From contig JBIJDH010000005.1 in NCBI GenBank assembly GCA_044344255.1, positions 96,001 to 160,000 of the forward strand: 64,000 nucleotides of DNA. The letters are read 5' to 3'. Numbering within the stretch: the first letter of the stretch is position 1; every line of letters begins with the position of its first letter. Below are positions 9,561 through 25,477 of this stretch, piece by piece. The position numbers and the translations under genes were made by a program. Under the pieces are notes generated by a model. The model saw nothing but the letters and a program-made list of their open reading frames with translations, searched no databases and had not been told where the DNA came from. Source of the stretch: Myxococcota bacterium (lineage in GTDB: Bacteria; Myxococcota_A; UBA796; UBA2385).

Positions 9561-12500
9561 ATGCGCCTCAGCCCTATCCGCCGGCCCTCTGGCGTTCACC
9601 TCGTCGCCTCCGGGCTCTTGTCCGGGCTCTTCGGTGCCCTGGCCGGGTGCGGGGGCCCCGCTGAGCGGGAAGTAGAGGGGAGCCGCTCGGCGGGAGACAC
9701 GGACGGCGCCGCTGCGATCGCCGTGGACACCGCCGCGGCTGGGTCGGCGCGCGACGGCGGCTGGGGTGCGACTGTCTCTCGTCGACTGGAGGCAGGGCGG
9801 CGGGCCTTCCGAGCGGAGGGGGCCGGATTCCGGGCGACCCACGGCCAGGCGGGTCTGGAGATCCACCTGGACGACCAGGGGGCCGTACTCGACGGCCCCG
9901 AGGGCACCCTCACGATGCGCTTCCTCGCCTGGGGGCGCGGCGGGGCCTTGGTGGAGGCGGAGCCCGCTCGGGCCGAGCTCGGCGACTGTACCGAGGAGAT
10001 CGACGTCACCGGGGACTGCCTGCGTCGGGTGGAACTCTCTCGCGGACCGGTGATCGAGTGGTGGGCCAGCCGCGAAGAGGGTCTCCAGCAGGCCTGGGAG
10101 CTGTCGGAGCGCCCCGCCGGCGAGGGCGAGCTGCGTCTCGTCGTGGGCGTGACGGGCGCGATCCCGTCGCTCGATGACGGGGAGGTCGTCTGGGTGGGCC
10201 ACGATGGCGGCCTGTGGCGAACCGCCTCGCTGGAGGCCTGGGACGCGACCGGGCGCCCCCTCGACGCCCGCTTCGAGCTGGGGGCGGGCTCTGTGGAGGG
10301 TGCGGAGCTGCACGTCGTCGTCGACGACGCGCAGGCCACCTGGCCCATCTTCATTGACCCCATCACGAGCACCGCCGCCTCCACCTGGACCGGCGGCACC
10401 GCGGGTGACCTCTTCGGCGTGGTGGGCGGTGGTGGGGACATCAACGGCGACGGGTATGACGACTTCGTCGTCGGCGCGCCCGGCTACAGCTCGAACACGG
10501 GCGTCGCTTATGTGTTCTACGGCTCCGCCGCCGGCCCGGCCGCGACCGCCGACGTCACCCTCTCATCGCCCTCCACGGGGGCCTACTTCGGCGCCGCCGT
10601 AGACATTGCCGGGGACGTCAACGACGACGGCTACGACGACGTCATCGTGGGCGCGCCCTATGAGTCCACCGCCGCGGCGCTCGCAGGGCGGGCCTATGTG
10701 TACCACGGCACTTCGGCCGGGCTCTCGACCACGGTCGGCTCCACCTTGACCGGCTCGGCCACCGCCGCTGGCTACTTCGGCAACGCCGTCTCTTCGTCGG
10801 GGGACGTCAACGGGGACGGATTCGCCGACGTCATCGTCGGTGAGTACGGCTACTCGAGCTCGAAGGGGCGCGCCTGGGTCTACGCGGGGAGCAGCGCTGG
10901 CGCCTCGTCAACGACCTCCCAGGTCTTCCTCGGCACGTCCTCGGGCGACCGCTTCGGGTGGGCGGTCTCCGGAGGCGGCGACACCACCGTGGACGGCTTC
11001 GATGACATCGCGGTGGGTGCGCCGCTGACGGGGACTGGCGACGCTGGATCGGCCCGGGTCTACAAAGGGGCGAGCAACTTCTTCACCACGGCCCCCTCTG
11101 TCGCCCATTCCTACACCTCATTCACCAACGGATACAACGTCGGCACCGCCGTCAACATCCAAGGTGACTACAACAACGACGGGTACTCCGACCTCGTGCT
11201 CGGCGCGCCCTATGGCCCCGGCTCGGGCTTTGGGCGGGTGTACTTCTACCGCTCCAACACCACCGCCCCCCCCGCCGTCGGCCTCCCGACGGGCAACAGC
11301 GCCACTTTTGACGGGCCGAGCGCCGCCTCGGCCTTCGGGAGCCGCATCGACTGGGTGGGGGACTCCAACGGAGACGGGCGGCAAGACCTCGTCGTGGGCG
11401 GGCCCTATGCGGTCTCCAACGCGGGCTACGCGGGCCTCTACGAGGGGGTCGCCTCGGGCCTCGCGGGGTCGGCGAAGTCCACCTTCTTCTCGGGTTCCGG
11501 CTCGGACCTGCTCGGGCTGTCGGTGGCGGGCGCCGGCGACGTGAACAATGATGGCTATGATGATGTGCTGCTCGGCGCCCCCGGCGCCAGCGGGACCAAG
11601 GGCGAGGTCCGGCTCCACTACGGCGGCGTGGACGCAGACGGGGACACCTACCTGTCGAACGGCAGCAGCTACCAGGTGGACTGCGACGACTCCAACAGCG
11701 CGGTGAACCCGGCCGCCACGGAGCTCTGTGACGAGTTGAACGTCGATGAGGACTGTGACGGGCAGGCCGACGACCTCGACAGCGCCGCCACCGGAGAGAG
11801 CGCCTGGTACGCCGACGACGACGAGGACGGCTACGGAGACGCCGCAGACAGCATCACCGCCTGCGACGCCCCGGCCGGGTATGTCGCCACGAGCGGGGAC
11901 TGCGATGACACCACCGCCGCGCGCAGCCCTGGCAACATGGAGATCTGCGACGGCGCGGACCTCGACGAGGACTGCGACGGCCTCGCTGATGACGCGGACC
12001 CCTCGGCGGACGGCGCTGGCAAGTCCGACGCCTACGTGGACGGTGACGCCGACAGCTACGGCAGCGGAGCCGCGGTGGCGTACTGTGATCTCCCCTCCGG
12101 CTACGCGGCCCAGGACGGGGACTGTGACGACGCCTCGGCCGACGTGAACCCGGGCGCCACCGAGGTCTGTGACGCCGCTGACCTCGACGAGGACTGCGAC
12201 GGCCTCTCCGATGACGCAGACAGCTCGGCCCTCACGGCCTCGAAGAGCAGCTTCCACCCCGACGCCGACGGGGACAGCTACGGCACCACCGCCTCAGCCT
12301 TGTTCTGTGACCTCCCCTCCGGCTACGCCACGAGCACGACGGACTGCGACGACGGCGACGCCGCCATCCACCCGGGCGCCACGGAGCTCTGTGACGCGGC
12401 CGACACCGACGAAGACTGCGACGGCTTGGCCGACAACGCCGACAGCAGCGCCAGTGTGGCCACGAAGTCGAGCTACTACCTCGACGCGGACGGAGACGCG

Positions 12501-15500
12501 TTCGGGGCCGGCAGCGCGGTGAAGTACTGCGATCTCCCCTCCGGCTACTCGCTGGTCGACACCGACTGCGATGACGGCGCAGCGAGCGTGAACCCGGGTG
12601 CGACCGAGCTCTGCGACGCGGCGAACACCGACGAAGACTGCGACGGCCAGGCCGACAACGCCGACAGCAGCGCCAGCGTGGCCACGAAGTCGAGCTACTA
12701 CAGCGACGGCGACAGCGACGGCTACGGGGCCGGCAGCGCGGTGAAGTTCTGCGACCTGCCCACAGGCTACGCCGCCACGAGCACAGACTGCGACGACGGG
12801 GTGGCCGCGGTGAACCCCGGTGCCACCGAGCTCTGCGATGGCGCGGACACCGACGAGGACTGCGATGGGTTGGCCGACAACGCCGACAGCTCGGCCAGCA
12901 CGGCGACCAAGTCGAGCTACTACCTCGACGGGGACGGCGACAGCTACGGCGGCCCGACCACCGCGAAGTTCTGCGACCTGCCCGCGGGCTACACCGTCAC
13001 TTCGACCGACTGCGACGACGCGGTCGCGGCGATCCACCCCGGTGCCACCGAGGTCTGCGATGTGTCCGACACCGACGAGGACTGTGATGGCCTCGCGGAT
13101 GACGATGACAGCTCCGCCTCGGCCGGCACCAAGGGCGACTTCTACGCCGATGGTGACGGCGACGGCTACGGCGCGGGCTCCGCGACCGCCTACTGTGACG
13201 CCCCCACCAGCTATGTCTCGCTCGGCGAGGACTGTGATGACGGCGCGACCGGCGTGAACCCCGGCGCCACCGAGCTCTGCGACGCCACGAACACCGACGA
13301 AGACTGCGATGGGCTCGCCGACAACGCCGACAGCTCGGCCAGCGCCGCCACGAAGGGCAGCTACTACCTGGACGGCGACACCGACGGATACGGCACCGGC
13401 AGCGCGGTGAAGTTCTGCGACCTCCCCACGGGCTACGCGGTCGCGGACACGGACTGCGATGACGCGGTCACCGCCGTGAACCCGGGGGCCACCGAGGTCT
13501 GTGACGCGGCGAACACCGATGAGGACTGTGACGGCCTCGCCGACAACGCCGACACCTCGGCCTCCGTGGCGACGAAGAGCAGCTACTACCGAGACAGTGA
13601 CACGGACGGCTACGGCAGCACCACGACCGCCAAGTTCTGTGATCTGCCGAGCGGCTACTCCACCTCCTCCACGGACTGCGACGACACCTCCACCGCCGTG
13701 AACCCCGGGGCCACCGAGGTCTGCGACGCCGCAGACACCGACGAGGACTGCGACGGGACCGCGGACGATGATGACAGCTCTGTCTCCGCGGCGACCCAGT
13801 CCACGGGCTACCTCGACGGCGACAGCGACGGCTACGGCGGCGCGACGACGGCCCTGTTCTGCGATCTGCCGAGCGGCTACCTCTCGAGCGGCACCGACTG
13901 TGACGACGCCGCCGCCGCCGTGAACCCCGGGGCCACCGAGGTCTGTGACGCCGGTGACACCGATGAGGACTGCGACGGCCTCGCCGATGACGCCGACAGC
14001 TCGGCCTCCGCGGCGACCAAGACCCGCTACTACACCGACAGCGACGGGGACAGCTACGGCACCAGCAGCTCAGCCGACTTCTGTGACCTGCCCTCCGGCT
14101 ACGCCGTCGCCTCCGGGGACTGCGACGACGGCCGCGCCGCCGTCAACCCCGGGGCCACCGAGGTCTGTGACCCGGTGAACCGCGATGAGGACTGCGACGG
14201 CACCGCCGACAACGCCGACAGCTCTGCTTCGGCGATCACCAAGAGCAGCTACTACCAGGACGGCGACGGCGACGGGTATGGCTCGGCCACCACCGGGGCC
14301 TTCTGTGACCTCCCCTCCGGCTACACCGCCGTCGGCGCGGACTGCGACGACGGGGACGCGCTGATCAACCCGGCGGCCGCCGAGGTCTGCGACCCGGCCA
14401 ACGTCGACGAGGACTGTGATGGGCTGGCCGACGACGCCGACTCGAGCACGCTCGCCTCGGGCAAGGTGACCTCCTACCGGGACGTCGATGGAGACAGCTA
14501 CGGCAGCGCCACCACCGCGCTGAGCTGCGACCTCGCCACCGGCTACGTCAGCGTCGGCGGGGACTGTGACGACGGCGCCCCGGCCACCCACCCCGGAGCG
14601 ACGGAGGTCTGTGACGCCTCCGACGCCGATGAGGACTGTGACGGCCTGTCCGACGACAGCGACGGCTCGGTGTCGGCCGCGACCAAGACGACCTACTACC
14701 GCGACACCGACGGCGACGGCTACGCCGGCGCGACGACCGGCGCCTTCTGCTCGGCCCCGAGCGGCTACTACGCGAGCGCCACGGACTGCAAGGACTCCGA
14801 CGACAGCGTCCACCCCGGTGCCACCGAGCTCGTGGCGGACGGTGTGGACCAGACCTGTGACGGACAGGAGCTCTGCTACGTGGACGCCGACGGGGACGGC
14901 TACCGGGTCGAGGACACCATCCTCAGCGCCAGCGTGACCTGCGGCGCGACCGGCCTCGCCCTGGCCAGCGAGCCGGGGGATGACTGCGACGACACCGACG
15001 CCGCCTACAACCCCGGCGCGGTCGAGGCGGACTGCACCGACCCCGCCGACTACAACTGCGACGGCTCGACCGGCTACGCCGACGAGGACAGCGACGGCTA
15101 CGCCGCCTGCGAGGAGTGCGACGACCAGGACGCCGCGATCAACCCGGCCGCCCAGGAGCGCTGTGACGCGCTCGACGTCGATGAGGACTGCGACGGGCTG
15201 ATCGACGACGACGACAGCTCGGTGGACGCCAGCACCAAGACCAGCTTCTACGCTGATGGTGACGGCGACGGCTACGCGGGCTCGACCACGGCCGACTTCT
15301 GTGACCTGCCGACCGGCTTTGGCACCGCCGCCACGGACTGCGATGACGGGGCGGTGGGCGTCAACCCGGGGGCCGCTGAGCTCTGCGATGGCGCTGACGT
15401 GGACGAAGACTGCGATGGGCTCGCCGATGACGCCGATCTGAGCGTCGACCCCGCCTCCTGGTCGGTCAGCTACCAGGACGGTGACGGCGACGGCTACGGG

Positions 15501-16823
15501 GCGACCGCGGCCTCCGTCTCCTGTGATCTGCTCCCCGGCTACGTCGCCGTGGACGGAGACTGCGACGACGCGGCGGAGGTTGTCAACCCCGGCGCCGCGG
15601 AGGTCTGCGACCTCCTCGACACCGACGAAGACTGTGATGGCCTCGCCGACGACCTCGACAGCTCGGTGGACGCCACCAGCTACAGCGCCTTCTACGCCGA
15701 CGTGGACGAGGACGGCTTCGGCGACCCCGACGCGGTGGTCTCGGCCTGTGACGAGTCGGCCGTCGCGGTGGCAGATGACAGCGACTGCGACGACGAGGAC
15801 GCCCTCGTCAACCCAGACGCCATCGAGATCGTGGGCGATGGGATTGACCAGGACTGTGACCTCGGCGAGCTCTGCTACGTGGACGCGGACGGGGACGGTT
15901 GGCGGACCGACGCTGAGGTGGCCTCCTCCACCCTCGACTGCAGCGGCGTCGGCGAGGGCCTCGCCTCCGACCCCACCGACGACTGCAACGACGCCGATCC
16001 CGCCTTCCACCCTGGCGCCACCGAGGACGACTGCAGCGATCCGAGCGACTACAACTGCGACGGCTCGGTCGGCTACGCGGACGCGGACGGCGACGGCTAC
16101 GCGGCCTGCGAGGAGTGTGATGACGGGGCGGTGGGCGTCAACCCCGACGCCACCGAGGTCTGCGACGGCGTGGACAATGACTGCGACACCGTGGCCGACG
16201 GCGCCGACGCCATGGACGCCCTCACCTGGTACGGCGACCTCGACGCCGACGGCTACACCAACCCCGACGACAGCGCGGTCGCCTGCGATGCGCCCGATGG
16301 CTACGCCGCCGCCTCCGCCGAGGCCGACTGCGACGACCTCGATGAGGGCGTGAACCCCGCCGCCCTCGAGGGCGTGGACGACGCGCTCGATCAGGACTGC
16401 GACGGGCTCGAGCTCTGCTACGTAGACGCCGACGACGACGGCTTCCGCCCCGACGAGACCAGCACGGCGGAGAGCGCGGACCTGCTCTGCGACGGCGCGG
16501 GCGAGGCCACGGCCGAGGACGCCGCGGGAGACTGCGACGACGACAACCCCGACGCCTACCCCGGCGCCGAGGAGGTCGCGGGGGACGCGGTCGATCAGGA
16601 CTGCGACGGCGCCGACCTCCCGGGCGACACGGGTCCGGAAGACACCGGCCCGACTGACGGAGACACCGGCGGCTCGGCGGACGGCGGCGACGGCGGCGAC
16701 GGCGGCTTCACCGGCGGTGGTAAGGGCTGCGGCTGCTCGGCCGGCGCGGGGGCCTCTGCGGGCTGGCTGGGCCTCCTGCTCGGCGTCGCGGCCCTCGGCG
16801 CCCGTCGCCGTCGGGTGGCCTGA
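9561..16823 (+). CDS. Giant surface protein paralog: lipobox, 7 FG-GAP repeats, ~24 MopE-like repeats, MYXO-CTERM
   Basis: LAGC lipobox; 7 FG-GAP motifs; same stalk repeats; C-terminus KGCGC...LLGVAALGARRRR. Confidence 0.9.
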   Translation: MRLSPIRRPSGVHLVASGLLSGLFGALAGCGGPAEREVEGSRSAGDTDGAAAIAVDTAAAGSARDGGWGATVSRRLEAGRRAFRAEGAGFRATHGQAGLEIHLDDQGAVLDGPEGTLTMRFLAWGRGGALVEAEPARAELGDCTEEIDVTGDCLRRVELSRGPVIEWWASREEGLQQAWELSERPAGEGELRLVVGVTGAIPSLDDGEVVWVGHDGGLWRTASLEAWDATGRPLDARFELGAGSVEGAELHVVVDDAQATWPIFIDPITSTAASTWTGGTAGDLFGVVGGGGDINGDGYDDFVVGAPGYSSNTGVAYVFYGSAAGPAATADVTLSSPSTGAYFGAAVDIAGDVNDDGYDDVIVGAPYESTAAALAGRAYVYHGTSAGLSTTVGSTLTGSATAAGYFGNAVSSSGDVNGDGFADVIVGEYGYSSSKGRAWVYAGSSAGASSTTSQVFLGTSSGDRFGWAVSGGGDTTVDGFDDIAVGAPLTGTGDAGSARVYKGASNFFTTAPSVAHSYTSFTNGYNVGTAVNIQGDYNNDGYSDLVLGAPYGPGSGFGRVYFYRSNTTAPPAVGLPTGNSATFDGPSAASAFGSRIDWVGDSNGDGRQDLVVGGPYAVSNAGYAGLYEGVASGLAGSAKSTFFSGSGSDLLGLSVAGAGDVNNDGYDDVLLGAPGASGTKGEVRLHYGGVDADGDTYLSNGSSYQVDCDDSNSAVNPAATELCDELNVDEDCDGQADDLDSAATGESAWYADDDEDGYGDAADSITACDAPAGYVATSGDCDDTTAARSPGNMEICDGADLDEDCDGLADDADPSADGAGKSDAYVDGDADSYGSGAAVAYCDLPSGYAAQDGDCDDASADVNPGATEVCDAADLDEDCDGLSDDADSSALTASKSSFHPDADGDSYGTTASALFCDLPSGYATSTTDCDDGDAAIHPGATELCDAADTDEDCDGLADNADSSASVATKSSYYLDADGDAFGAGSAVKYCDLPSGYSLVDTDCDDGAASVNPGATELCDAANTDEDCDGQADNADSSASVATKSSYYSDGDSDGYGAGSAVKFCDLPTGYAATSTDCDDGVAAVNPGATELCDGADTDEDCDGLADNADSSASTATKSSYYLDGDGDSYGGPTTAKFCDLPAGYTVTSTDCDDAVAAIHPGATEVCDVSDTDEDCDGLADDDDSSASAGTKGDFYADGDGDGYGAGSATAYCDAPTSYVSLGEDCDDGATGVNPGATELCDATNTDEDCDGLADNADSSASAATKGSYYLDGDTDGYGTGSAVKFCDLPTGYAVADTDCDDAVTAVNPGATEVCDAANTDEDCDGLADNADTSASVATKSSYYRDSDTDGYGSTTTAKFCDLPSGYSTSSTDCDDTSTAVNPGATEVCDAADTDEDCDGTADDDDSSVSAATQSTGYLDGDSDGYGGATTALFCDLPSGYLSSGTDCDDAAAAVNPGATEVCDAGDTDEDCDGLADDADSSASAATKTRYYTDSDGDSYGTSSSADFCDLPSGYAVASGDCDDGRAAVNPGATEVCDPVNRDEDCDGTADNADSSASAITKSSYYQDGDGDGYGSATTGAFCDLPSGYTAVGADCDDGDALINPAAAEVCDPANVDEDCDGLADDADSSTLASGKVTSYRDVDGDSYGSATTALSCDLATGYVSVGGDCDDGAPATHPGATEVCDASDADEDCDGLSDDSDGSVSAATKTTYYRDTDGDGYAGATTGAFCSAPSGYYASATDCKDSDDSVHPGATELVADGVDQTCDGQELCYVDADGDGYRVEDTILSASVTCGATGLALASEPGDDCDDTDAAYNPGAVEADCTDPADYNCDGSTGYADEDSDGYAACEECDDQDAAINPAAQERCDALDVDEDCDGLIDDDDSSVDASTKTSFYADGDGDGYAGSTTADFCDLPTGFGTAATDCDDGAVGVNPGAAELCDGADVDEDCDGLADDADLSVDPASWSVSYQDGDGDGYGATAASVSCDLLPGYVAVDGDCDDAAEVVNPGAAEVCDLLDTDEDCDGLADDLDSSVDATSYSAFYADVDEDGFGDPDAVVSACDESAVAVADDSDCDDEDALVNPDAIEIVGDGIDQDCDLGELCYVDADGDGWRTDAEVASSTLDCSGVGEGLASDPTDDCNDADPAFHPGATEDDCSDPSDYNCDGSVGYADADGDGYAACEECDDGAVGVNPDATEVCDGVDNDCDTVADGADAMDALTWYGDLDADGYTNPDDSAVACDAPDGYAAASAEADCDDLDEGVNPAALEGVDDALDQDCDGLELCYVDADDDGFRPDETSTAESADLLCDGAGEATAEDAAGDCDDDNPDAYPGAEEVAGDAVDQDCDGADLPGDTGPEDTGPTDGDTGGSADGGDGGDGGFTGGGKGCGCSAGAGASAGWLGLLLGVAALGARRRRVA
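11630..16620 (+). repeat. Intragenic degenerate tandem repeat, ~222-bp (74-aa) units
   Basis: Unit e.g. DTDEDCDGLADNADSSASVATKSSYYLDADGDAFGAGSAVKYCDLPSGYSLVDTDCDDGAASVNPGATELCDAA (74 aa). Confidence 0.85.
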
Positions 16824-17026: not shown

Positions 17027-17995
17027 ATGGACGACGCCACCCCCGCGACCCTCTCGACGGCCGCACCGCGGTCGGCGTGCCGTCGTGGGGCTCGGACGGC
17101 GCTCCGGGTCGCCGTGCTCGGGGTCCTGGTCGGGCTCGTCCTCCAACGGCTCGACCTCGCGGCCGTCTCGGCCGCCTGGCGCGGCGTGACCCCCGGAGGA
17201 GCTTTGGGTGTGATCGCCTGCTTCGGGGCGGCGATGACCGTCCGTGTGGGGAAGTGGGCCTGGCAGGTCCACCGGCTTGACCTCCCCTTTGACCTCCTCC
17301 CGCTGACCCGCGCCTTCCTCACCGGCATCGTGCTCGGGGCCGTGACGCCGCTTCGGGCCGGGGAGGTCTATCGACTGTCGGGGTTACGGCTCGACCCCGC
17401 CCGGCGCGCCGAGCAGGTCGCCCTGACCGGCGCGAGCCTCCTCCTCGAGAAGGTCTACGAGCTGTTGATCCTGGTCACCATCGCCTCCGCCGGCCTCGTC
17501 CGCCTCCGCCCCGGGCTCGGCCTCGGCTTGCTGAGCGGCGTCGGGGTCGCCGCCGTGATCAGCCTCAGCGGGGCGCGGCCCCCCGCAGGCTGGCTGCGGG
17601 CCCTCCCCGCCCGTCTCCGCCGCCTCACCATCGATCCGCTCCTCCAAGCCCGAGACGGCCTCGGCCTCGGCGGGCGGCTCGGCCTCGTCTCGCTCACCGC
17701 GGCGGCCCACGGCCTCAACACCCTCGGCGCGCTCGGCGTGTACCGGGCCTTTGGGCCGATGTCGGCCGACACGCTCTTCTTCCGGATGCCGCTCGTCACG
17801 CTCACCAACGCCCTGCCGCTCTCGATCGGCGGCATCGGGGTGAGAGAGCTCGCGGCCATGTACATCTTCGGGGGCGCCACCTTCCCCGCGTCGAGCGCCG
17901 CGCTCGCCGCCTCGGTGGTCTTCGTCGGCGCCAACCTGTTGCCCGCGTTGGTCCTCCCCCTCCTCGCCCTCGTCCCCGAGAGACGCTCCCCCTGA
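17027..17995 (+). CDS. Lysylphosphatidylglycerol-synthase TM-domain (flippase-like, AglD2/UPF0104) membrane protein
   Basis: Multi-pass protein with TPLRAGEVYR, LLEKVYEL and LPLSIGGIGVRE motifs characteristic of the family. Confidence 0.85.
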   Translation: MDDATPATLSTAAPRSACRRGARTALRVAVLGVLVGLVLQRLDLAAVSAAWRGVTPGGALGVIACFGAAMTVRVGKWAWQVHRLDLPFDLLPLTRAFLTGIVLGAVTPLRAGEVYRLSGLRLDPARRAEQVALTGASLLLEKVYELLILVTIASAGLVRLRPGLGLGLLSGVGVAAVISLSGARPPAGWLRALPARLRRLTIDPLLQARDGLGLGGRLGLVSLTAAAHGLNTLGALGVYRAFGPMSADTLFFRMPLVTLTNALPLSIGGIGVRELAAMYIFGGATFPASSAALAASVVFVGANLLPALVLPLLALVPERRSP

Positions 17996-19176
17996 TGAAG
18001 ACCGCCCCCGCTCGAATTCTCGTCCTCGGGGGCGACGGCTATGTCGGCTGGCCCCTCGCGCTGAAGCTCGCGCTCAGCCACCCCCAGGCCAGGGTGTTGC
18101 TGGCGGACAACCTCTCGCGACGGCGGCTCGTCGCCGAGGTCGGTGGCGACAGCGTCACGCCGATCGCGGCGCCCGCGGAGCGCATCCGCGCCTTTCGAGA
18201 CACCTTCGAGCAGGACAACCTGAGCTTCGTGGGTGTTGATGCGGCGAGCCCCGCCCTCGACGCCCTCGTCGAGGCCGAGCAGCCCACCCACATCTTTCAC
18301 CTCGCCCAGCAGGCGAGCGCGCCCTACTCGATGATGGACCCCGAGCGGGCGGTCTACACGGCGACCAACAACGAGGTGGGCAACCTGCGGGTGCTGTGGG
18401 CCATCCGGCGCCACGTCCCGACCGCGCACCTCATCAAGCTCGGGAGCTTCGGGGAGTACGCCCGACCCGGCTTCGACGTCGCCGAGGGCTACTTCCGGCC
18501 CACCTACAAGGGGGTGGAGGCGTCGGTCGACACACCCTTTCCGCGGGCCGCAGACGACATTTATCATGTCACCAAGATCAACGATACGAATTTCATCTCG
18601 ATGGCCTGTCGGAAGTGGGGCCTCCGCGTCACCGATGTCATGCAGTCCACCCTCTTCGGCGTCTTCACGGCCGAGACGAGGCTGCACCCCGCCCTCTACA
18701 CCCGCTTCGACTACGACGCCGTGTTCGGCACCGTGCTCAATCGGTTCCTGACCCAGGCGGTGATGGGCTGCCCCTTGACCGTCTATGGCACGGGCTGGCA
18801 GCGCACGGGCCTGATGGCGCTCGAGGACGCCACGGGCTCCCTCGCCGCGCTGGTCGACCACCCACCCGCCGTGGGCGAGCACCGTGTCATCAACCACGTC
18901 ACCGAGCGCGACTTCTGCATCAACGAGCTCGCGGAGCGCGTGCAGGCGGTCGCGTCCAGCCGCGGCGCGACCATCCCCATCGAGCGCACCTTCGACCCCC
19001 GCAATGAGCAGGATCTCTGCAAGGCGACCTACACCGTCGAGGCGGGCCACGTAGATGAGCACGTCCGCCCGACCCCGCTCGATCAGGTGCTGGGCCCGGT
19101 CTTCGACATCGTCGCCCTTAACGCAGCACGCATCGATCCCCGCCGCTTCGCGCCCACGGTGCGCTGGTGCGGTTGA
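17995..19176 (+). CDS. sqdB: UDP-sulfoquinovose synthase (SqdB/SQD1/Agl3 family)
   Basis: GGDGYVGWP, DNLSRR, SVTPIA, HLAQQASAPYSM, HLIKLGSFGEY, YHVTK (YxxxK), RFDYDAVFGTVLNRF, PLTVYG: the signature set of SqdB; TGATG overlap with the upstream gene. Confidence 0.9.
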   Translation: MKTAPARILVLGGDGYVGWPLALKLALSHPQARVLLADNLSRRRLVAEVGGDSVTPIAAPAERIRAFRDTFEQDNLSFVGVDAASPALDALVEAEQPTHIFHLAQQASAPYSMMDPERAVYTATNNEVGNLRVLWAIRRHVPTAHLIKLGSFGEYARPGFDVAEGYFRPTYKGVEASVDTPFPRAADDIYHVTKINDTNFISMACRKWGLRVTDVMQSTLFGVFTAETRLHPALYTRFDYDAVFGTVLNRFLTQAVMGCPLTVYGTGWQRTGLMALEDATGSLAALVDHPPAVGEHRVINHVTERDFCINELAERVQAVASSRGATIPIERTFDPRNEQDLCKATYTVEAGHVDEHVRPTPLDQVLGPVFDIVALNAARIDPRRFAPTVRWCG

Positions 19177-19185
19177 GCGTCGCGC

Positions 19186-20349
19186 ATGAGTGACGAAGCG
19201 CGTGAGGCCGACGAGGCGCCCTGGGAGGCGCTCCGGCTCGAACACTTCTCGGGGGAGCGGCTCAACCTCAACCCGGGCACGCTGGGCACCCCCTCCGCCG
19301 ACGTGCGGCGGGCGATGACCGCCTTTCGGGAGGAGGACGGAGAGGCCTATCCGCTCGGGCGATACACACGGGGACGCGCCGCGCTCCGACGGGCTCGGGC
19401 GCTCGCCGAGTCGCTGTGGGGGGAGGCCCCTGCGATCTGCGGGAGCGCCTCTCACACCATGAACCTCATCGCCTGGTCCCTCGCGCGCTCCTGCGGGGAG
19501 CCCGTGCCCGTCCTCGCCACGACCCATGAGCACCATGGGGCGGTCGCGGTCTTCGAGCGGGACGCGGCCTTCCTCCTCACCACGCTCCCTCCGGCGCAGC
19601 TCGCCTGGGAGGAGGCGCTGCGCCAGCACCTGCGCCGGTCGCCCCCGCGGGTGGCCCTCTTCTCCCAGCGCACCTGGACCGAGGGGAGGCGCCTTCCGGT
19701 GGAGGCGTGGTGCCGGGCGCTCTCGGAGGAGGCGCCGGGCTGCCTCCGCATCGTCGACGCCGCTCAGGTGGTCGGCCTCGGACCCCCCGCGCTCCAGGAC
19801 GCCGACGTCGTGGTGGCGAGCGCCCACAAGTGGCTCTTCGGGCCGGCGGGGCTGGGCTTCGCCTGGGTCTCCGATCGAGCCCGGGTCACCCTCGGCGAGC
19901 TCTGGCGCACCGGCGAGCCCCTCGACCCGGGCGCCCGCCTCGCCGGCTGGGAGGCCGCGGGTGGTCAGGACTTCGCCCTCTACGCCGGCCTCGAGGCGGC
20001 GCTCGCCCTCTATGCCCGCATCGGCCCCGCGCGGGTCCGGGCGCGCAGCCGGGCCCTCGCCGATTGGCTCGCCGCCGCACTCGGTCCGCTCCTCCCCGAC
20101 GCCCGGGTCGAGGCGGAGGACGGCGTGGTGCGCGCGTGCTTCGCGGGCGGCGATCCCTATCCGCTCTATGTCTCGCTCAACGTCATCGGGATCCACTGCA
20201 AGTGTATCAAGTCTGAGCTGGCGGACGGCGAGCGCCTGGCTGTCCTCCGCTTCGGACTCCCCTGGTACGAGACCCGCGCTCGCCTCGGTCGCCTCCTCGA
20301 GGCGGTCCAAGCGGCCGATCCGCGGGCCCGGGAGCCGGGCCGTGAGTGA
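19186..20349 (+). CDS. Class-V aminotransferase-fold PLP enzyme (C-S lyase/desulfinase/isopenicillin-N-epimerase-like)
   Basis: LNPGTLG, EHH, VDAAQ, SAHKWLFGP (PLP lysine); no canonical SSGSAC or RxGxHC persulfide loop. Confidence 0.85.
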   Translation: MSDEAREADEAPWEALRLEHFSGERLNLNPGTLGTPSADVRRAMTAFREEDGEAYPLGRYTRGRAALRRARALAESLWGEAPAICGSASHTMNLIAWSLARSCGEPVPVLATTHEHHGAVAVFERDAAFLLTTLPPAQLAWEEALRQHLRRSPPRVALFSQRTWTEGRRLPVEAWCRALSEEAPGCLRIVDAAQVVGLGPPALQDADVVVASAHKWLFGPAGLGFAWVSDRARVTLGELWRTGEPLDPGARLAGWEAAGGQDFALYAGLEAALALYARIGPARVRARSRALADWLAAALGPLLPDARVEAEDGVVRACFAGGDPYPLYVSLNVIGIHCKCIKSELADGERLAVLRFGLPWYETRARLGRLLEAVQAADPRAREPGRE

Positions 20350-21976
20350 CACCCCCACCGAGAGACAGGGCGCCCTCGTCCAGTTCGCGCTGATCGCAGG
20401 CCTCGTCGCGCTCAAGGTGCAGGTCAACGCGGGGATGACCAGCTTCGGCACCGACGGGAGCCTGTACCTGGAGGTGGCGAGGAACGTCCGAGACGGCCGC
20501 GGGCTCGTGAGCTTCATCTCGCTCATGAACGCAGGGGTGGAGTCATTTCCCTATCCGACGCCGCTCTATCCGATCTGGCCGCTGCTCCTCGGCGTCGTGG
20601 GCCGAGTGGTCCCCATCGAGGTGGCCGCGATCTGGCTTCCGACCCTCTTCTACTTCGGGGCGGTGGTCCAGGCCGCGCGCCTCGCCCGCACCTTGTGGCC
20701 AGGGCCCCTCTTCCCGGACGGCTGGCGGCCCCTCGACGCCGGCCACGTCGCGATCCTGCTGCTCGGCTACAACAGCCTGTTCTTCGAGTACACCTCGGTG
20801 CCCTACACGGAGGGCCTGGCCTGGTGTGGGCTGTTCTTCCTCCTGTTACGCGCGCGGGCCTTCTTTGGCCAGCCCTCCGCGTTGCGGGCGGCGGAGGTGG
20901 GCCTTTATACGGGTCTGTTGATCCTGGTGCGCTCCCAGATGTTCCTCGCCTCCCTGGCGCTCGGGGGCACCTTCGCCTGGGCGCTGCTCACCACCCGAGA
21001 GCGGGGGCGCTGGGCGGGCTACGCGGCGGCTGCAGCGGCCGGCTGGGGGCTGGCGCTCGCCCCGCAGCTCCTCTATCTCTCCACCTTCTATCACCCGCTC
21101 GGCCTCAACGCCTTGCTTCGTTTTGACGACTTCAGAGCCTCAAACCTTCTTACCCCGCTCCAGACCCTTCGGCCGGCCGGGGGCGCCTTCGCCTGGCTCC
21201 TCGATCGCGCGGAGGGCTTCGACGTCGCCTACACCGTCGGGGGTCGCTATGCCTACGTCCAGAACTTCGGGGTCCTGCACTGGGCGCCGCCCCTCGCGGT
21301 CCTGTTCGGGCTCCGCCGGTGGCGCGACCCGACCCGGGCTGCCTGGGCGCGCCTGCGAGAGCCCTCCGCCGCCTTCACGACCTACCTCGTGCTGCTGGCG
21401 CTCGGCGGCTTCGCCTCGATCCACACCCTCCACAAGGACTTCGGCGCTGAGTGGAATTTCGCCACCCGGCACGCACTGACCGTCCTCTTCCTCTTCGGAT
21501 GGGGCGTGGTCTCCCTGGCCGCGCGCGGGGGGGCTGGCCGCACGGCGGCGGTGGCCATCCTCAGCATTACCGGCTGGCTGCAGGCGATGGACTTGAAGGC
21601 CCTCTACAAGGACACCGAGGCCAGCGCGAGCTCGGGGATCCAGCGCCGCGCCGGCCTCGTCTGGTGGATCCAGCAGGCGCGGCGGGCCGATCCCGCCTTG
21701 CTCATCGTCACCGACGAGCCCCAGCGCCTGGCCGTGCTGGTCCCCGACCTCCCGGTCCACTCGGTCTGGCTCCGCAGCAGCTACGATGACCTCTGGACCC
21801 TGTTCGACTACTTCGGCGCCGACTACCTCATCATCAATGACCGCATCGAGAAGTACGACTTCGCCAACGACCCCCGGTGGACGGAGGGCTTCGAGCTCGT
21901 GGCTCCCGACATCAGCGGCGAGGCGGTTTATCGGCGGCGTGACCTCGCCTCCTCCGAGACCGAGCCCGTCCCCTGA
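20342..21976 (+). CDS. Polytopic GT-C-like (PMT/ArnT-like) membrane glycosyltransferase
   Basis: GTG 20342 overlapping the upstream stop; first loop TDGSLYLEVARN, YPIWPLLL, PYTEGL, many TM helices, C-terminal soluble domain with ADYLII. Confidence 0.7.
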   Translation: MSDTPTERQGALVQFALIAGLVALKVQVNAGMTSFGTDGSLYLEVARNVRDGRGLVSFISLMNAGVESFPYPTPLYPIWPLLLGVVGRVVPIEVAAIWLPTLFYFGAVVQAARLARTLWPGPLFPDGWRPLDAGHVAILLLGYNSLFFEYTSVPYTEGLAWCGLFFLLLRARAFFGQPSALRAAEVGLYTGLLILVRSQMFLASLALGGTFAWALLTTRERGRWAGYAAAAAAGWGLALAPQLLYLSTFYHPLGLNALLRFDDFRASNLLTPLQTLRPAGGAFAWLLDRAEGFDVAYTVGGRYAYVQNFGVLHWAPPLAVLFGLRRWRDPTRAAWARLREPSAAFTTYLVLLALGGFASIHTLHKDFGAEWNFATRHALTVLFLFGWGVVSLAARGGAGRTAAVAILSITGWLQAMDLKALYKDTEASASSGIQRRAGLVWWIQQARRADPALLIVTDEPQRLAVLVPDLPVHSVWLRSSYDDLWTLFDYFGADYLIINDRIEKYDFANDPRWTEGFELVAPDISGEAVYRRRDLASSETEPVP

Positions 21977-22010
21977 TGGATCCCCTCACCCACATCGGTT
22001 ACACGATCAG

Positions 22011-22790
22011 ATGACCTTCTCGGCCCTCCTCCTGTCGTCGAAGGTGTTGGCCAGCCCGGCCGCGGTGGGCGCCGCCTTGAAGGTCCAGGCTGCCTCGTCC
22101 AGTCACCCCGTCCCCACGCTCAGCGTCGGCGACCTACAACGCCTCGACGCCGGCGAGGTAGTCCGGCTGCGGACCCCCAGCGCGGAGGGCACAGCGATCG
22201 GCGCCCTGGGCCTGGTGATCACCGACCTGTCTCCCAAGGACCTGTGGATGGGCACCCTCGACCCGCACGGCCGCCTGCCCAGCGACATTCGGATGCACGC
22301 CCTCCCGGGTGTCGCGGACGAGCTGTACCGCTGGTACGGCTTCGTCGACCTGCCCGCGCCCCTAAAAGACCGCCACTTCCTGGTGCGCACCACCATCGAC
22401 ACACCCATGGCGGCCCGGAGCCAAGGTTCGATCTGGGAGCGGAGCTGGGGACTGGAAGTAGGCTGGCCGCAGGCGATGCGTCCCCTGATAGACCGCGGTC
22501 AGATCGCCGACATGGATGTCGAACACTTCGATGACGCGATCCCGACGCCGGTGAACCAAGGCACCTGGACGGTGCTGGATCTCCGGGACGGCCGCAGCCT
22601 ACTCGCTTACCAGGTCGCAACGGCGCTCGGGGGGGACCTCCCGGATGGTCCCCTCAACCGCTACCTCTATTGGACCCTCAACGACGTCCTGACCGGCGTG
22701 GTCAACACCGCTCGCACCATGTCACAACATTATGTGACCGGTCACGACCCGCTCATCGGCGGTGACGGAAAGGCCATCGCGACCTATTGA
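22011..22790 (+). CDS. START/SRPBCC-like lipid-binding domain protein
   Basis: YGFVDLPAPLKDRHF, NQGTWTV, YQVATALGGDLP resemble bacterial START-domain motifs. Confidence 0.6.
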   Translation: MTFSALLLSSKVLASPAAVGAALKVQAASSSHPVPTLSVGDLQRLDAGEVVRLRTPSAEGTAIGALGLVITDLSPKDLWMGTLDPHGRLPSDIRMHALPGVADELYRWYGFVDLPAPLKDRHFLVRTTIDTPMAARSQGSIWERSWGLEVGWPQAMRPLIDRGQIADMDVEHFDDAIPTPVNQGTWTVLDLRDGRSLLAYQVATALGGDLPDGPLNRYLYWTLNDVLTGVVNTARTMSQHYVTGHDPLIGGDGKAIATY

Positions 22791-22886
22791 GGGCACGGGA
22801 TGGGTGAGTGACGGTGCGCCAAGGCCCGGGCGCCCCACGGACTATGGTTGCCACGACCTCGCCTCCTCGGAGGCCGGAGCCGCCCC

Positions 22887-23432
22887 ATGATCGATCCCCT
22901 GCTCCGCGCCCTGGCCCCCCTGGCCCCTGCGGTCCACGACATGCAGGGTGTCGCCGCGTTGGTCCGGGCCATCTCACCGCTCGTGGGCACCCTCCGGGTG
23001 CGCGACGGCGACCTCCCCTGGGGCCGCTACCTCCTCCACCTCGCTCCGGACGCCTCCTGGAACCTCCAGCTTGACGTCTTCTCCGAGGGCTACGAGGGCG
23101 GAGTCCACGCGCACGGGACCTGGGGCGCCTTCTGGGTGCTCCGCGGGGCGCTGTGGACCGAGCAGCTCACGATGGGGCCCAACGGGGCCCGCCTGTCGGG
23201 GGCCGGCTTCGTGACCCCCGGCGGCTGTGGCGCCTTCTGCCCCCCGGAGAGCGACTGGCACCGGGTGGGTAGCCCCGCGCAGGGCGAGCAGACCGTGAGC
23301 CTGCACCTCTACGGCCGCGGCTTCGATCTCGACGTGGGCGAGGGGATCGGACCGGATGGCCTTCCCCGTCGTTATGCGCGCAGCCCCTGGGGCGCGCCGA
23401 GCCGGGTCCTGGGCGCGGTGGTGGCTCGGTGA
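22887..23432 (+). CDS. Cysteine dioxygenase-family (thiol dioxygenase) cupin
   Basis: WGRYLLH, VHAHGTWG (HxH), DWHRV (third His), VSLHLYG (Ser-His-Tyr motif). Confidence 0.8.
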   Translation: MIDPLLRALAPLAPAVHDMQGVAALVRAISPLVGTLRVRDGDLPWGRYLLHLAPDASWNLQLDVFSEGYEGGVHAHGTWGAFWVLRGALWTEQLTMGPNGARLSGAGFVTPGGCGAFCPPESDWHRVGSPAQGEQTVSLHLYGRGFDLDVGEGIGPDGLPRRYARSPWGAPSRVLGAVVAR

Positions 23433-24475
23433 GCGCCCCCGGGCCGACGGCGGGGTGGGTGATCTCCGCTGCAGCCGTCGCCGCCCTCCCGGCGATGCTC
23501 TGGCTTCGCAGGGGGCGCTACGGCCGACGGGAGCTTCGTTTCGCCCTCGCCGCCCTCACCCTCGCCGCCCTCGCGCCGCTGCCCGGCCTCGGCCCCTGGA
23601 TGGTGGCCCTGCCCGAGCGCCTCTGCGGCGCCACGCCGGCCCAAGCGGCCCTCGCCGCCCTGGCGTTGGCGCTGGCGTCCTGGGCCCGCCGCGCGGAGCG
23701 CAGGGCCCGGTCGGCCGAAGAGGGCCTCTTCGCGCTCGGCCGGGCCCTCGCCGTCGACGCTGCCCTCGCCATCCCGAGGGAGGGCCTCGCTCCCGAGATC
23801 GTCGTGATCATGCCGGCGCTCGACGAGGCGGAGAGCCTGCCGGGGGTGCTGTCGGGCGCGCCGTCGGAGGTCCTCGGCCGCAGCCTCCGTGTCCTCGTGG
23901 TCGACGACGGCTCGGCCGACGATACGGCGGCCGTCGCGGCACGCCACGGCGCGATCAGCGTGCGCAGCGCAGTCAACGGGGGGGGCGGGCACGCGCTGCT
24001 GATCGGCTTCGCCGCCGCACGACGGCTGGGCGCCCGGTGGGCTGTGACGATGGACGCCGATGGTCAGCACCGCTTCGAGGACCTCCCCGCCCTCCTCGCC
24101 CCCCTGCTGGCTGGGGAGGCCGACGTCGTGGTGGGCAGCCGGCGGCTCGGGGCCTCGATCGGCCACGAGGCGCTGCGAGCGGTGGGGCTCCGCGTCTTCA
24201 ACCTCGCACTCAGCCTGATCACGGCGCGGCGGGTGACCGACTGCTCGAGCGGCCTCCGGGCCTTCGACCTGCACGCCACGCGGGGCCTCCGCCTCCGCCA
24301 GCGCCGCCACCACACCGCTGAGCTGCTCATCGAGGCCAGCCGGAGGGGCATGCGCATCGTCGAGGTGCCGATCACCATCCTGCCCCGCGCCCACGGCGAG
24401 ACGAAGAAGGGCCCGAACTGGCTCTACGGAGCGCGCTTCGCGGGGACCGTCACCAGCACGCTCTGGGAGGCCTGA
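23429..24475 (+). CDS. DPM1-like GT2 polyprenyl-phosphate glycosyltransferase with N-terminal DUF2304-like membrane domain
   Basis: IMPALDE, VVDDGSADDT, MDADGQH, TDCSSGLRAF, EVPITI; N-terminal TM helices; GTGA overlap with the CDO gene. Confidence 0.85.
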   Translation: MSAPGPTAGWVISAAAVAALPAMLWLRRGRYGRRELRFALAALTLAALAPLPGLGPWMVALPERLCGATPAQAALAALALALASWARRAERRARSAEEGLFALGRALAVDAALAIPREGLAPEIVVIMPALDEAESLPGVLSGAPSEVLGRSLRVLVVDDGSADDTAAVAARHGAISVRSAVNGGGGHALLIGFAAARRLGARWAVTMDADGQHRFEDLPALLAPLLAGEADVVVGSRRLGASIGHEALRAVGLRVFNLALSLITARRVTDCSSGLRAFDLHATRGLRLRQRRHHTAELLIEASRRGMRIVEVPITILPRAHGETKKGPNWLYGARFAGTVTSTLWEA

Positions 24476-24544: not shown

Positions 24545-25477
24545 TCAGAAAACATAGGCCACTGAGGCGTCAAAGCGGTAGAGCAGGGGGATGCGGTCGT
24601 AGGTCGCGATCTCGTCCGGCAGGTAGGCGAAGGTGCCGCCGACGAGGCCGTGGAGATGCTCGGTGGGCAGCAGGTTCGCGCCGAGGGAGAGGTCGGGGAG
24701 CACGCCCTGGAGGCGCCAGGTAGACACATCGACCTGGACGAAGAAGTCGTTGGAGATCGTCTCGGCGCCGAGCTTGACGTAGGGCTGAACGACCTCGGAG
24801 GCCTTCCAGGTGCCGACGAGGCGCAGGCCCCCCTCCCGCAGCGAGAGGACGTCGACGCAGCCGTATTCCTGGGGCGCGCAGACGGCGTCGTACCGCGCCG
24901 CGTCGGTGTTCGCTTCGAGCTCGCCCGACTCCTTCTGGTCTGTGGAGGCGGCCACCGGGGCGCCCGCACGGCCCACGGTGACGTCCAGCTCTGCGCCCAC
25001 CCGCCACCGCTCTCCGAGGTCGAGCCCGGTTGAGCCCGAGAGCCCCGCGACCAGCGCCGAGGCCCCCTGGACCGGCACCGGTGGGGTGAGGGACATGCCG
25101 ATCCCCCAGCCCACCCGCCCCCGCCGCTCCGTCCAGGCCACCATCAGCCGCGGCATCACCGGGCTGAACTGAGTGTTCTCCTCCTTCCCGACGAGGTTCT
25201 TCTGCGGCTTGCTGAAGGGGAAGGTGTCGAGCCCGCCCCCGAGCTGAAGGCCGGTGGGCCCATACATCGCCGCCGAGCCCTGGGTGGACTGGTGCCGCAG
25301 CGTAAAGGACTGCTCGGCGATGCCGTTACCGAGGAAGGCGAAGAACTCCTGTGCGCCCTCCGTGCGCTGGTTCAGCTTCACGACCCAGCCCGGGTCTTGC
25401 ACGCCGGGGTCAACCATCTCGATGTGGACCTGGGCCTGCGCGGGAGGGGAGGTCAGGAAGAACAGCGTCACCAGCAT
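24545..25477 (-). CDS. Exported hypothetical protein, probable outer-membrane beta-barrel
   Basis: Signal peptide ending AQA; C-terminal ASVAYVF (terminal Phe beta-signal). Confidence 0.6.
   Translation of the reverse strand: MLVTLFFLTSPPAQAQVHIEMVDPGVQDPGWVVKLNQRTEGAQEFFAFLGNGIAEQSFTLRHQSTQGSAAMYGPTGLQLGGGLDTFPFSKPQKNLVGKEENTQFSPVMPRLMVAWTERRGRVGWGIGMSLTPPVPVQGASALVAGLSGSTGLDLGERWRVGAELDVTVGRAGAPVAASTDQKESGELEANTDAARYDAVCAPQEYGCVDVLSLREGGLRLVGTWKASEVVQPYVKLGAETISNDFFVQVDVSTWRLQGVLPDLSLGANLLPTEHLHGLVGGTFAYLPDEIATYDRIPLLYRFDASVAYVF

Follow-up and report, generated by a model that had tools for sequence, protein, structure and literature searches.

How does sulfur reach C6 of a sugar when a gene for a relative of sulfosugar synthases stands beside genes for enzymes of apparent cysteine chemistry? 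The question is raised by a seven-gene operon at positions 17027..24475 of a 64,000-nucleotide stretch of Myxococcota DNA (contig JBIJDH010000005.1, positions 96,001 to 160,000 of the forward strand), which is referred to here as the window. Few organosulfur compounds are as abundant as sulfoquinovose, and to our knowledge its synthesis has been described only as the reaction of SqdB with sulfite. The accessible text of PMC4388408 states that the in vivo route of sulfur to C6 was unknown in 2015. The operon very likely produces a sugar that carries cysteine-derived sulfur at C6 and is delivered by a lipid carrier. A route in which the C6-sulfur sugar nucleotide arises from cysteine through a cysteine–sugar adduct is given even weight, the whole of this chemistry being read from sequence. 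A first-pass annotation of the same DNA had proposed that SqdB, fed with sulfite derived from cysteine, supplies sulfoquinovose to a polyprenol-linked glycosylation system. Cysteine is indeed a likely sulfur source and this outline stands, with a sulfur-entry chemistry that is probably more unusual than was then proposed. The operon is conserved and combines an apparently undescribed form of sulfosugar synthesis with a module for glycosylation by a lipid carrier.

Gene organization

The operon consists of seven open reading frames (ORFs), all on the + strand:

g1, 17027..17995, + strand: flippase-like membrane protein (LPG_synthase_TM, Pfam PF03706, 2e-17)
g2, 17995..19176, + strand: divergent SqdB/SQD1-like enzyme of the short-chain dehydrogenase/reductase (SDR) type, member of the "Asp180 clade" (SqdB-like NF041015, 4e-99; SQD1, 2e-78)
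g3, 19186..20349, + strand: class-V pyridoxal 5'-phosphate (PLP) enzyme, apparently of the C-DES/EgtE C–S lyase type (Aminotran_5, PF00266, 7e-17)
g4, 20342..21976, + strand: GT-C-like (ArnT/PMT-like) polytopic membrane glycosyltransferase (Atlas features, 0.99)
g5, 22011..22790, + strand: START/polyketide-cyclase-like protein (Atlas features alone, 0.92-0.97)
g6, 22887..23432, + strand: cupin thiol dioxygenase (PDB thiol dioxygenase match, 2e-9)
g7, 23429..24475, + strand: family 2 glycosyltransferase (GT2) of the polyprenol-phosphate glycosyltransferase type with an N-terminal membrane region (Glycos_transf_2, 9e-18)

The ORF coordinates agree with the seven co-oriented genes and three overlaps reported in the first-pass annotation; the overlaps measure 1 nt at 17995 (TGATG), 8 nt at 20342-20349 and 4 nt at 23429-23432, and the remaining gaps 9, 34 and 96 nt. 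The gene families assigned there are supported as well, but the genes labelled SqdB and cysteine dioxygenase are divergent relatives rather than proven members of those families. The GC content of the operon (0.70-0.74) is like that of the remainder of the window, which lies on contig C70 of an 8.2-Mb genome that is 95% complete (labelled G000). A scan for promoters and terminators gave no signal exceeding that of shuffled sequences.

The SqdB-like enzyme

g2 matches SQD1 over the full length (2e-78), and no second SqdB-like gene was found in the genome. Positions 101, 145, 146, 148, 180, 182, 183, 186 and 188 are given below in SQD1 numbering. The SDR site is kept, with S151, Y190, H191 and K194 of g2 aligning to Thr/Ser145, Tyr182, His183 and Lys186; the GxxGxxG motif and Glu148-Tyr149 are also present. 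Four substitutions are found (residue of g2 given second): Ser180 to Asp188, Met146 to Phe152, Arg101 to Ala107, and His188 to Asn196. These were followed in a survey of 119 rows, made up of 115 of the 120 best g2 matches (five shorter than 360 aa were dropped) and four fusion proteins. Aspartate occupies position 180 in 119/119 rows of the clade versus 0/17 rows outside it. Within the clade Met146 is replaced by Phe in 116/119 and His188 by Asn in 110/119, Arg101 is kept in 16/119, and His183 is present in all 119. In a 62-row tree, obtained by a quick search without bootstrap in which the motif columns were retained and SQD1 and Agl3 were left out, the 39 Asp180 rows make up one side of a branch with an SH-aLRT (approximate likelihood ratio test) value of 100 and a stem of 0.81. 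In the accessible text of PMC4388408, the R101A and M145A mutants of Agl3 are inactive and S180A is impaired; the three positions needed for full Agl3 activity (Arg101, Met145/146 and Ser180) all differ in g2.

The simplest reading of the gene set is a supply of free sulfite, in which g6 oxidises cysteine to cysteine sulfinate, g3 desulfinates this to alanine and sulfite, perhaps channelled in fused forms, and g2 makes UDP-sulfoquinovose for the carrier module. We regard it as a serious rival that fits genomes without sulfate assimilation, though its probability lies well short of even. It leaves unexplained why the altered g2 site belongs to precisely that clade in which g3 and g6 occur. The role of a plain UDP-sulfoquinovose synthase fed with free sulfite, as first proposed for g2, is unsupported, since the active-site region is remodelled throughout the clade.

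The score of g2 against NF041015 is 332 bits, below the cut-off of 575; only 1/14 control genomes passes this cut-off. Since Synechococcus elongatus and Sulfolobus acidocaldarius were both among the matching controls, one real member or more must fall below it. Loss of Arg101 was considered as a stand-alone proof of a new nucleophile and was rejected, because Ser180-type SqdB proteins without Arg101 also exist. A supposed association of Arg101 loss with formation of an amino sugar, sulfoquinovosamine in Haloarcula, found no confirmation.

Several other variants were observed among SqdB-like genes. A subclade to which Amaricoccus solimangrovi belongs retains Arg101 and Asp180 and has Glu148 replaced by Ala; its rows are P0095, P0098, P0100-P0102, P0105, P0108 and P0110-P0120 (in part). 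A long-branched SqdB-like group from actinomycete metagenome-assembled genomes and metagenome contigs (L018, L031, L042, L043 and L046) has His183 changed to Asp and Ser180 to Thr, a further rewired active site. L039:160-3518 holds an Asp180-clade gene without a PLP gene after it, and a NeuB gene on the opposite strand. L066:967-11936, on the Pseudonocardia plasmid NZ_AP018921.1, holds an sqdB-like gene flanked by a GT2 gene, MurJ and a PLP gene of the cysteine synthase family, and is possibly another cysteine-linked sulfosugar locus.

The PLP-dependent enzyme

The best single-sequence PDB match of g3 is C-DES (3e-10), and its profile defines a distinct family with 61 representatives at E<=1e-30. 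The family aligns gap-free to the C-terminal loop of C-DES, and a 4-residue gap separates it from the RAGHHC loop of SufS; in place of RxGHHC or another SufS/CsdA signature, g3 carries HxKCIK, four residues short of SufS. The PLP site (H116, Q194 and H214-K215-W216) is present in 36/36 members and D191 in 35/36. K339 and R355 are invariant (36/36) and match two C-DES arginines, Arg360 and Arg369; the loop cysteine is replaced in 5/36. Among the same 36 members, NCBIfam matches are to EgtE in 34/36 and to two CsdA models in 6/36 and 10/36. The EgtE model scores the g3 of the window at 34 bits, with a cut-off of 400, and g3 is, as judged from sequence, not an EgtE orthologue. It resembles a C–S lyase of the C-DES/EgtE type more than the desulfinase CsdA.

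This assignment bears on the supply of free sulfite from two sides. Cysteine sulfinate already yields sulfite through the action of housekeeping aminotransferases, so a dedicated and fused enzyme would be unneeded for that purpose. According to the accessible text of PMC8300815, the class-V PLP enzyme CsdA is named a cysteine sulfinate desulfinase, which suits a desulfinating g3, but IscS, SufS and CsdA are marked there by an SSGSACTS or RxGHHCA loop with a catalytic cysteine. The C-DES-type short loop and the HKW motif of g3, in the absence of the SufS/CsdA signature, argue against a free-sulfite feed.

The same accessible text describes C-DES as producing cysteine persulfide or sulfide from cystine or cysteine (PMC8300815), which raises a different order of events. 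Here g3 would act first on cystine or cysteine and hand persulfide or sulfide to g2, and a 6-thio sugar would be formed; fusion of g2 and g3 would then channel a reactive donor. We consider this improbable, and equally so its continuation, in which the 6-thio sugar is oxidised by g6 to the sulfinate or stays a thiol. The points that bear on it further lie in g6.

The thiol dioxygenase

g6 gave no Pfam match. Its single-sequence PDB matches are 3-mercaptopropionate dioxygenase (3MDO, 2e-9), mercaptosuccinate dioxygenase (2e-4) and cysteine dioxygenase (CDO, 0.14), and 3MDO is also nearer by profile (7e-14, versus 1e-5 for CDO). The residues of a 3-His iron site (H74, H76, H125), a Ser-His-Tyr triad (S138, H140, Y142) and a CDO-type arginine (R47, corresponding to Arg60 of CDO) are invariant in 10/10 orthologues; the roles of such residues in thiol dioxygenases are treated in the accessible texts of PMC8050391 and bioRxiv 10.64898/2026.05.19.726356. 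The pocket differs at D63/F65, Asp or His standing where 3MDO has Phe79, and there is an extra invariant arginine, Arg165. The residue pattern fits cysteine as the substrate without proving it.

The CDO-type arginine in 10/10 orthologues (PMC8050391, accessible text) speaks for the free-sulfite supply, and it stands against oxidation of a 6-thio sugar by g6; a UDP-sugar would also be large for a CDO-type pocket. On the other hand, Asp/His at the position of Phe79 together with Arg165 could mean that the thiol is not cysteine. The position of g6 speaks for the late oxidation too: the gene stands directly before that of the GT2 in 11/11 clusters and stays with it where the operon is split, although the two split cases come from related genomes.

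Conservation and gene fusions

Besides the window, ten clusters were read (L006, L007, L008, L009, L010, L011, L012, L037, L088 and L089). The genes g1, g2, g3, g4, g6 and g7 form a conserved system. The order g2-g3-g4-g6-g7 is found in the window, with g5 inserted, and in seven other clusters, and this recurrence in other genomes makes the gene set more than chance. g3 follows g2 immediately in 11/12 loci with sufficient downstream DNA, the window included; L038 and L061 end too soon to judge. g4 is not in place in L088, whose genome has two g4-family genes elsewhere, and in G392 and G061 it is found away from the cluster. Two spirochaete genomes have the operon split, with g2-g3 at one site and g6-g7 at another, accompanied by g4 in one of them. 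g5 had been counted as a member of the cluster. It gave no tblastn match in the ten other clusters and has two paralogues on contigs C54 and C14 of its own genome; we reject it as a pathway member and regard it as a local insertion.

Among 401 genomes of the phylum, an SqdB-like gene (E<=1e-40) occurs in 13 and the Asp180 clade (E<1e-130) in 4. The g6 profile reaches E<1e-60 in the same 4/401 genomes and ~1e-13 in 3 others, and the g3 profile passes 1e-40 in the same 4/401 only; these counts are to be read with profiles built in part from these genomes, 4-8 candidates scored per genome, and kin that are not independent. In the 9 genomes with a Ser180-type SqdB, a g6 orthologue is found in 0/9 and a passing g3 in 0/9. 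The distribution is patchy: the cluster is present in 2/61 genomes among close relatives and, in the spirochaete phylum, in 1/301, the centre genome only. The first-pass annotation had tied its proposal to co-occurrence of these genes elsewhere; the sqdB-type, PLP, dioxygenase, GT2 and GT-C genes do recur together in other genomes, and the same 4 of 401 share the g2 clade, g3 and g6.

Four full-length g2-g3 fusions (P0159, P0163, P0166 and P0181) carry a full g2-clade domain before the PLP domain, and two further g3-family proteins carry a partial one. P0159 is ANDGO_01679 of the jakobid protist Andalucia godoyi, and its first domain is 56% identical to g2. The g2-g3 enzyme pair spans bacteria of at least two phyla and a jakobid protist. 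The fused forms do not group in the quick tree, in which those branches are unresolved. No g6 fusion was found among 8000 longer candidates at E<=1e-8, which is weak evidence.

Sulfur metabolism

The genome of the window encodes cysD/cysN (locus L099, G000:C70:266976-267656) and gave no match to CysH, Sat or sulfite reductase; the activated sulfate probably serves sulfation rather than assimilation. The other five non-spirochaete cluster genomes likewise gave no match to CysH or sulfite reductase. That 6/6 such genomes lack both, with only cysDN in the genome of the window, fits a need for another source of sulfite and favours the free-sulfite supply. In the same direction, a CysH-length match is present in 7/9 of the genomes with Ser180-type SqdB (four were read, the others judged by length), and in L118 (G211:C2:308373-310194) a cysH-like gene follows a Ser180-type sqdB directly and so provides sulfite through a coupling of the classical kind.

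The four spirochaete cluster genomes, by contrast, all encode Sat, CysH and sulfite reductase, yet keep g3 and g6. A free-sulfite feed leaves this retention unexplained, and such a feed, as first proposed, loses support by it. The argument that genomes without sulfate assimilation prove a supply of sulfite is weakened by these four genomes with the whole route, and also by the absence of sulfite reductase in 55/61 genomes among relatives (6/61 match).

The predicted lipid-carrier module

The GT2, flippase and GT-C proposed in the first-pass annotation as a lipid-carrier module are borne out as an ArnC/dolichol-phosphate mannose synthase-type g7, a flippase-like g1 and a GT-C-like g4. All four PDB matches of g7 (4/4) are to ArnC or dolichol-phosphate mannose synthase, and its best NCBIfam matches are PpgS (99 bits) and AglJ (95 bits), both below cut-off. 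The DAD motif (DxD) is invariant, three hydrophobic N-terminal segments are present, and g7 can be assigned from its sequence as a GT2 of the polyprenol-phosphate type. The earlier label "DUF2304-GT2" holds for some orthologues rather than for the gene itself: the Pfam scan did not detect DUF2304 in the g7 of the window but did in 3/6 orthologues scanned (2e-7 in L037).

g1 lies directly upstream of g2 in L009, L010, L037, L038, L061 and L088, and in the spirochaete clusters small EamA/SMR-like genes after the GT2 take its place; g1 is a replaceable part and the predicted flippase for a lipid-linked sugar. The g4 of the window gave no Pfam match, and no PDB match by sequence or profile. Its Atlas value of 0.99 to PMT/PMT_2 clusters, a weak PMT_2 match in 4/30 homologues, and an Asp38 that is invariant in 30/30 rows and sits in the loop after the first of nine hydrophobic segments (family profile) support a putative GT-C assignment.

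Comparable modules accompany Ser180-type SqdB. L145:5924-15724 (G370:C100) combines such an SqdB with a g4 homologue, LPG_synthase_TM and a DUF2304-GT2 (47% identity to g7) and lacks g3 and g6; L090:8379-14287 (G341:C3) has a Ser180-type SqdB, DUF2304-GT2 and LPG_synthase_TM without g4, g3 or g6. In these loci the lipid-carrier module occurs in a sulfite-type form. The presence of the module with both kinds of SqdB suggests a sulfoquinovose-like cargo, and that g3, g6 and Asp180 provide an alternative entry of sulfur. The same observation is also in line with the free-sulfite supply, which would use this downstream module.

A very improbable alternative is that the sugar nucleotide goes to the ordinary sulfolipid (sulfoquinovosyl diacylglycerol, SQDG) through an unlinked transferase, while the GT2, flippase and GT-C serve another sugar. 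The displaced g4 of G392 and G061 and six other GT2 matches in G000 leave some room for it. The search of G000 for SqdD called for by the first-pass annotation gave no match at E<=0.01 with two queries in this 95% complete genome (SqdX was not searched), and that for SqdC only generic SDR matches (best, 39% over 97 aa). The absence of an SqdD match, the constant location of g7 in the cluster or beside g6 (11/11), and the carrier module that also follows other SqdB clades all argue against this alternative.

LpxC is encoded in G000 and in 3/4 spirochaete cluster genomes, which makes lipid A a possible acceptor. Directly upstream of the operon, on the same strand, window positions 9561-16823 encode a 2420-aa protein that carries 7 FG-GAP repeats, 24 Cu-binding_MopE repeats and, at its C-terminus, a membrane anchor. 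As a sugar acceptor it is unsupported, being absent beside the other clusters read. At the other end, a 310-aa ORF without a Pfam match (24545-25477, - strand) converges on the operon.

Proposed mechanism

In the route through a cysteine–sugar adduct, g2 would oxidise and dehydrate a UDP-hexose to the 4-keto-5,6-ene, as SQD1 and Agl3 do, a step suggested by the retained SDR residues; the candidate sugar scaffold is glucose or an N-acetylhexosamine. An amino-acid sulfur nucleophile would then replace sulfite and add at C6, held by Asp188 through its amino group. In the preferred order, g6 would oxidise cysteine first; the product, cysteine sulfinate, is like sulfite a nucleophile at the S(IV) level, and its addition would give an S-cysteinyl sulfone. 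Sulfinates, like sulfite, undergo addition to enones, so a CDO-type g6 also fits a route in which cysteine sulfinate is the nucleophile. In the other order, the thiol of cysteine would add first and g6 would later oxidise the freed 6-thiol. Beta-elimination by g3 would cut the C–S bond of cysteine to release pyruvate and ammonia, and both orders would lead to UDP-6-deoxy-6-sulfino-hexose, which may oxidise to sulfoquinovose. By family, g7 is predicted to make the sugar-P-polyprenol, g1 to flip it and g4 to transfer the sugar outside; lipid A/lipopolysaccharide (LPS), another glycan or a protein are possible acceptors.

Addition of cysteine followed by cleavage with a C-DES-like lyase has precedents in YcfA-YcfC (PMC12494993) and EgtE (PMC4493562), as far as the accessible texts go; the latter describes cleavage of thioether and sulfoxide adducts by EgtE. 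We favour the adduct route because it explains the changed site of g2, the lyase-type partner, and the retention of the genes beside sulfate assimilation. Several points weigh against it, in addition to the six genomes without sulfate reduction. The accessible text of PMC4493562 offers no precedent for cleavage of a sulfone by EgtE. The g3 profile scores SufS (93 bits) level with C-DES (89 bits), and SufS gives the best single NCBIfam E-value for the g3 family. Proline stands in place of Arg101 in SqdB proteins of the Ser180 type, haloarchaeal ones and several others, that lack g3 and g6; some of their genes adjoin those of sugar epimerases or dehydratases, so that loss of the arginine may reflect the sugar rather than the nucleophile, and 16 members of the clade retain it. 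That Ser180 and Arg101 line the cavity for the sulfur donor is partly our assumption. In the tree the four spirochaetes form a single lineage, and so they count as one event. In L039, a clade member on a 4-kb contig, unrelated genes take the place of g3 downstream.

Taken a step further, and with slightly less than even probability, the operon may represent a second route independent of free sulfite, in which a rewired SqdB adds cysteine sulfinate or cysteine to the sugar enone, a fused or neighbouring PLP lyase cleaves the adduct, and the 6-sulfino sugar ("sulfinoquinovose") or its sulfonate then reaches a polymer of the bacterial surface by way of polyprenol phosphate. The operon names candidate sulfur donors for C6, and its three soluble enzymes make the question testable. 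The outcome would be new either way: a dedicated cysteine-to-sulfite feeder, or a new reaction that forms a C–S bond, possibly with a sulfinate sugar as product. The operon also leads us to predict that bacteria have a lipid-linked sulfosugar and a GT-C that transfers sulfosugars, and more than 100 proteins, many automatically named "UDP-sulfoquinovose synthase", may be mis-annotated.

Comparison with known systems

A literature search that covered few subscription papers found no description of this gene set, in agreement with the first-pass annotation. No paper was found that joins UDP-sulfoquinovose synthase with cysteine dioxygenase, sulfoquinovose with a C–S lyase, or Andalucia godoyi with sulfoquinovose.

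g2 shares full-length homology and the SDR residues with SQD1 of Arabidopsis (PDB 1qrr/1i24), SqdB, and Agl3 of Sulfolobus acidocaldarius, the last of which likewise feeds a surface glycan (PMC4388408, accessible text). Unlike these enzymes, g2 belongs to a separate, long-stemmed clade with Ser180 changed to Asp, Met146 to Phe and Arg101 mostly lost, and its constant partners are a PLP enzyme, in some cases fused to it, and a thiol dioxygenase. Classical sqdB loci differ in their surroundings as well: no sqdC or sqdD stands beside g2, and a GT2-flippase-GT-C set is found downstream. As in the YcfA-YcfC (6-thioguanine) and EgtB/EgtE (ergothioneine) systems, a class-V lyase without the cysteine loop stands beside an enzyme that activates the acceptor carbon (accessible texts of PMC12494993 and PMC4493562); here, by contrast, the acceptor would be an enone of a sugar nucleotide made by an SDR enzyme, and a thiol dioxygenase is added. 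g6 has the 3-His site and Ser-His-Tyr triad of CDO, 3MDO and mercaptosuccinate dioxygenase and is overall nearest to 3MDO, from which it differs by the CDO arginine at Gln63, Gly at Arg168 (in an ungapped extension of the alignment), Asp/His at Phe79 and the extra invariant Arg165.

Lipid-carrier glycosylation modules are known from ArnC-ArnE/F-ArnT, which brings L-Ara4N to lipid A, from RgtE/RgtA-D of Rhizobium, which brings GalA to LPS, and from GtrABC. The operon resembles them in its polyprenol-phosphate GT2, flippase-like partner (LPG_synthase_TM or EamA/SMR-like) and ArnT/PMT-like GT-C, and differs from them in its predicted cargo, a C6-sulfur sugar, and in a g4 that belongs to an unnamed family without a Pfam model.

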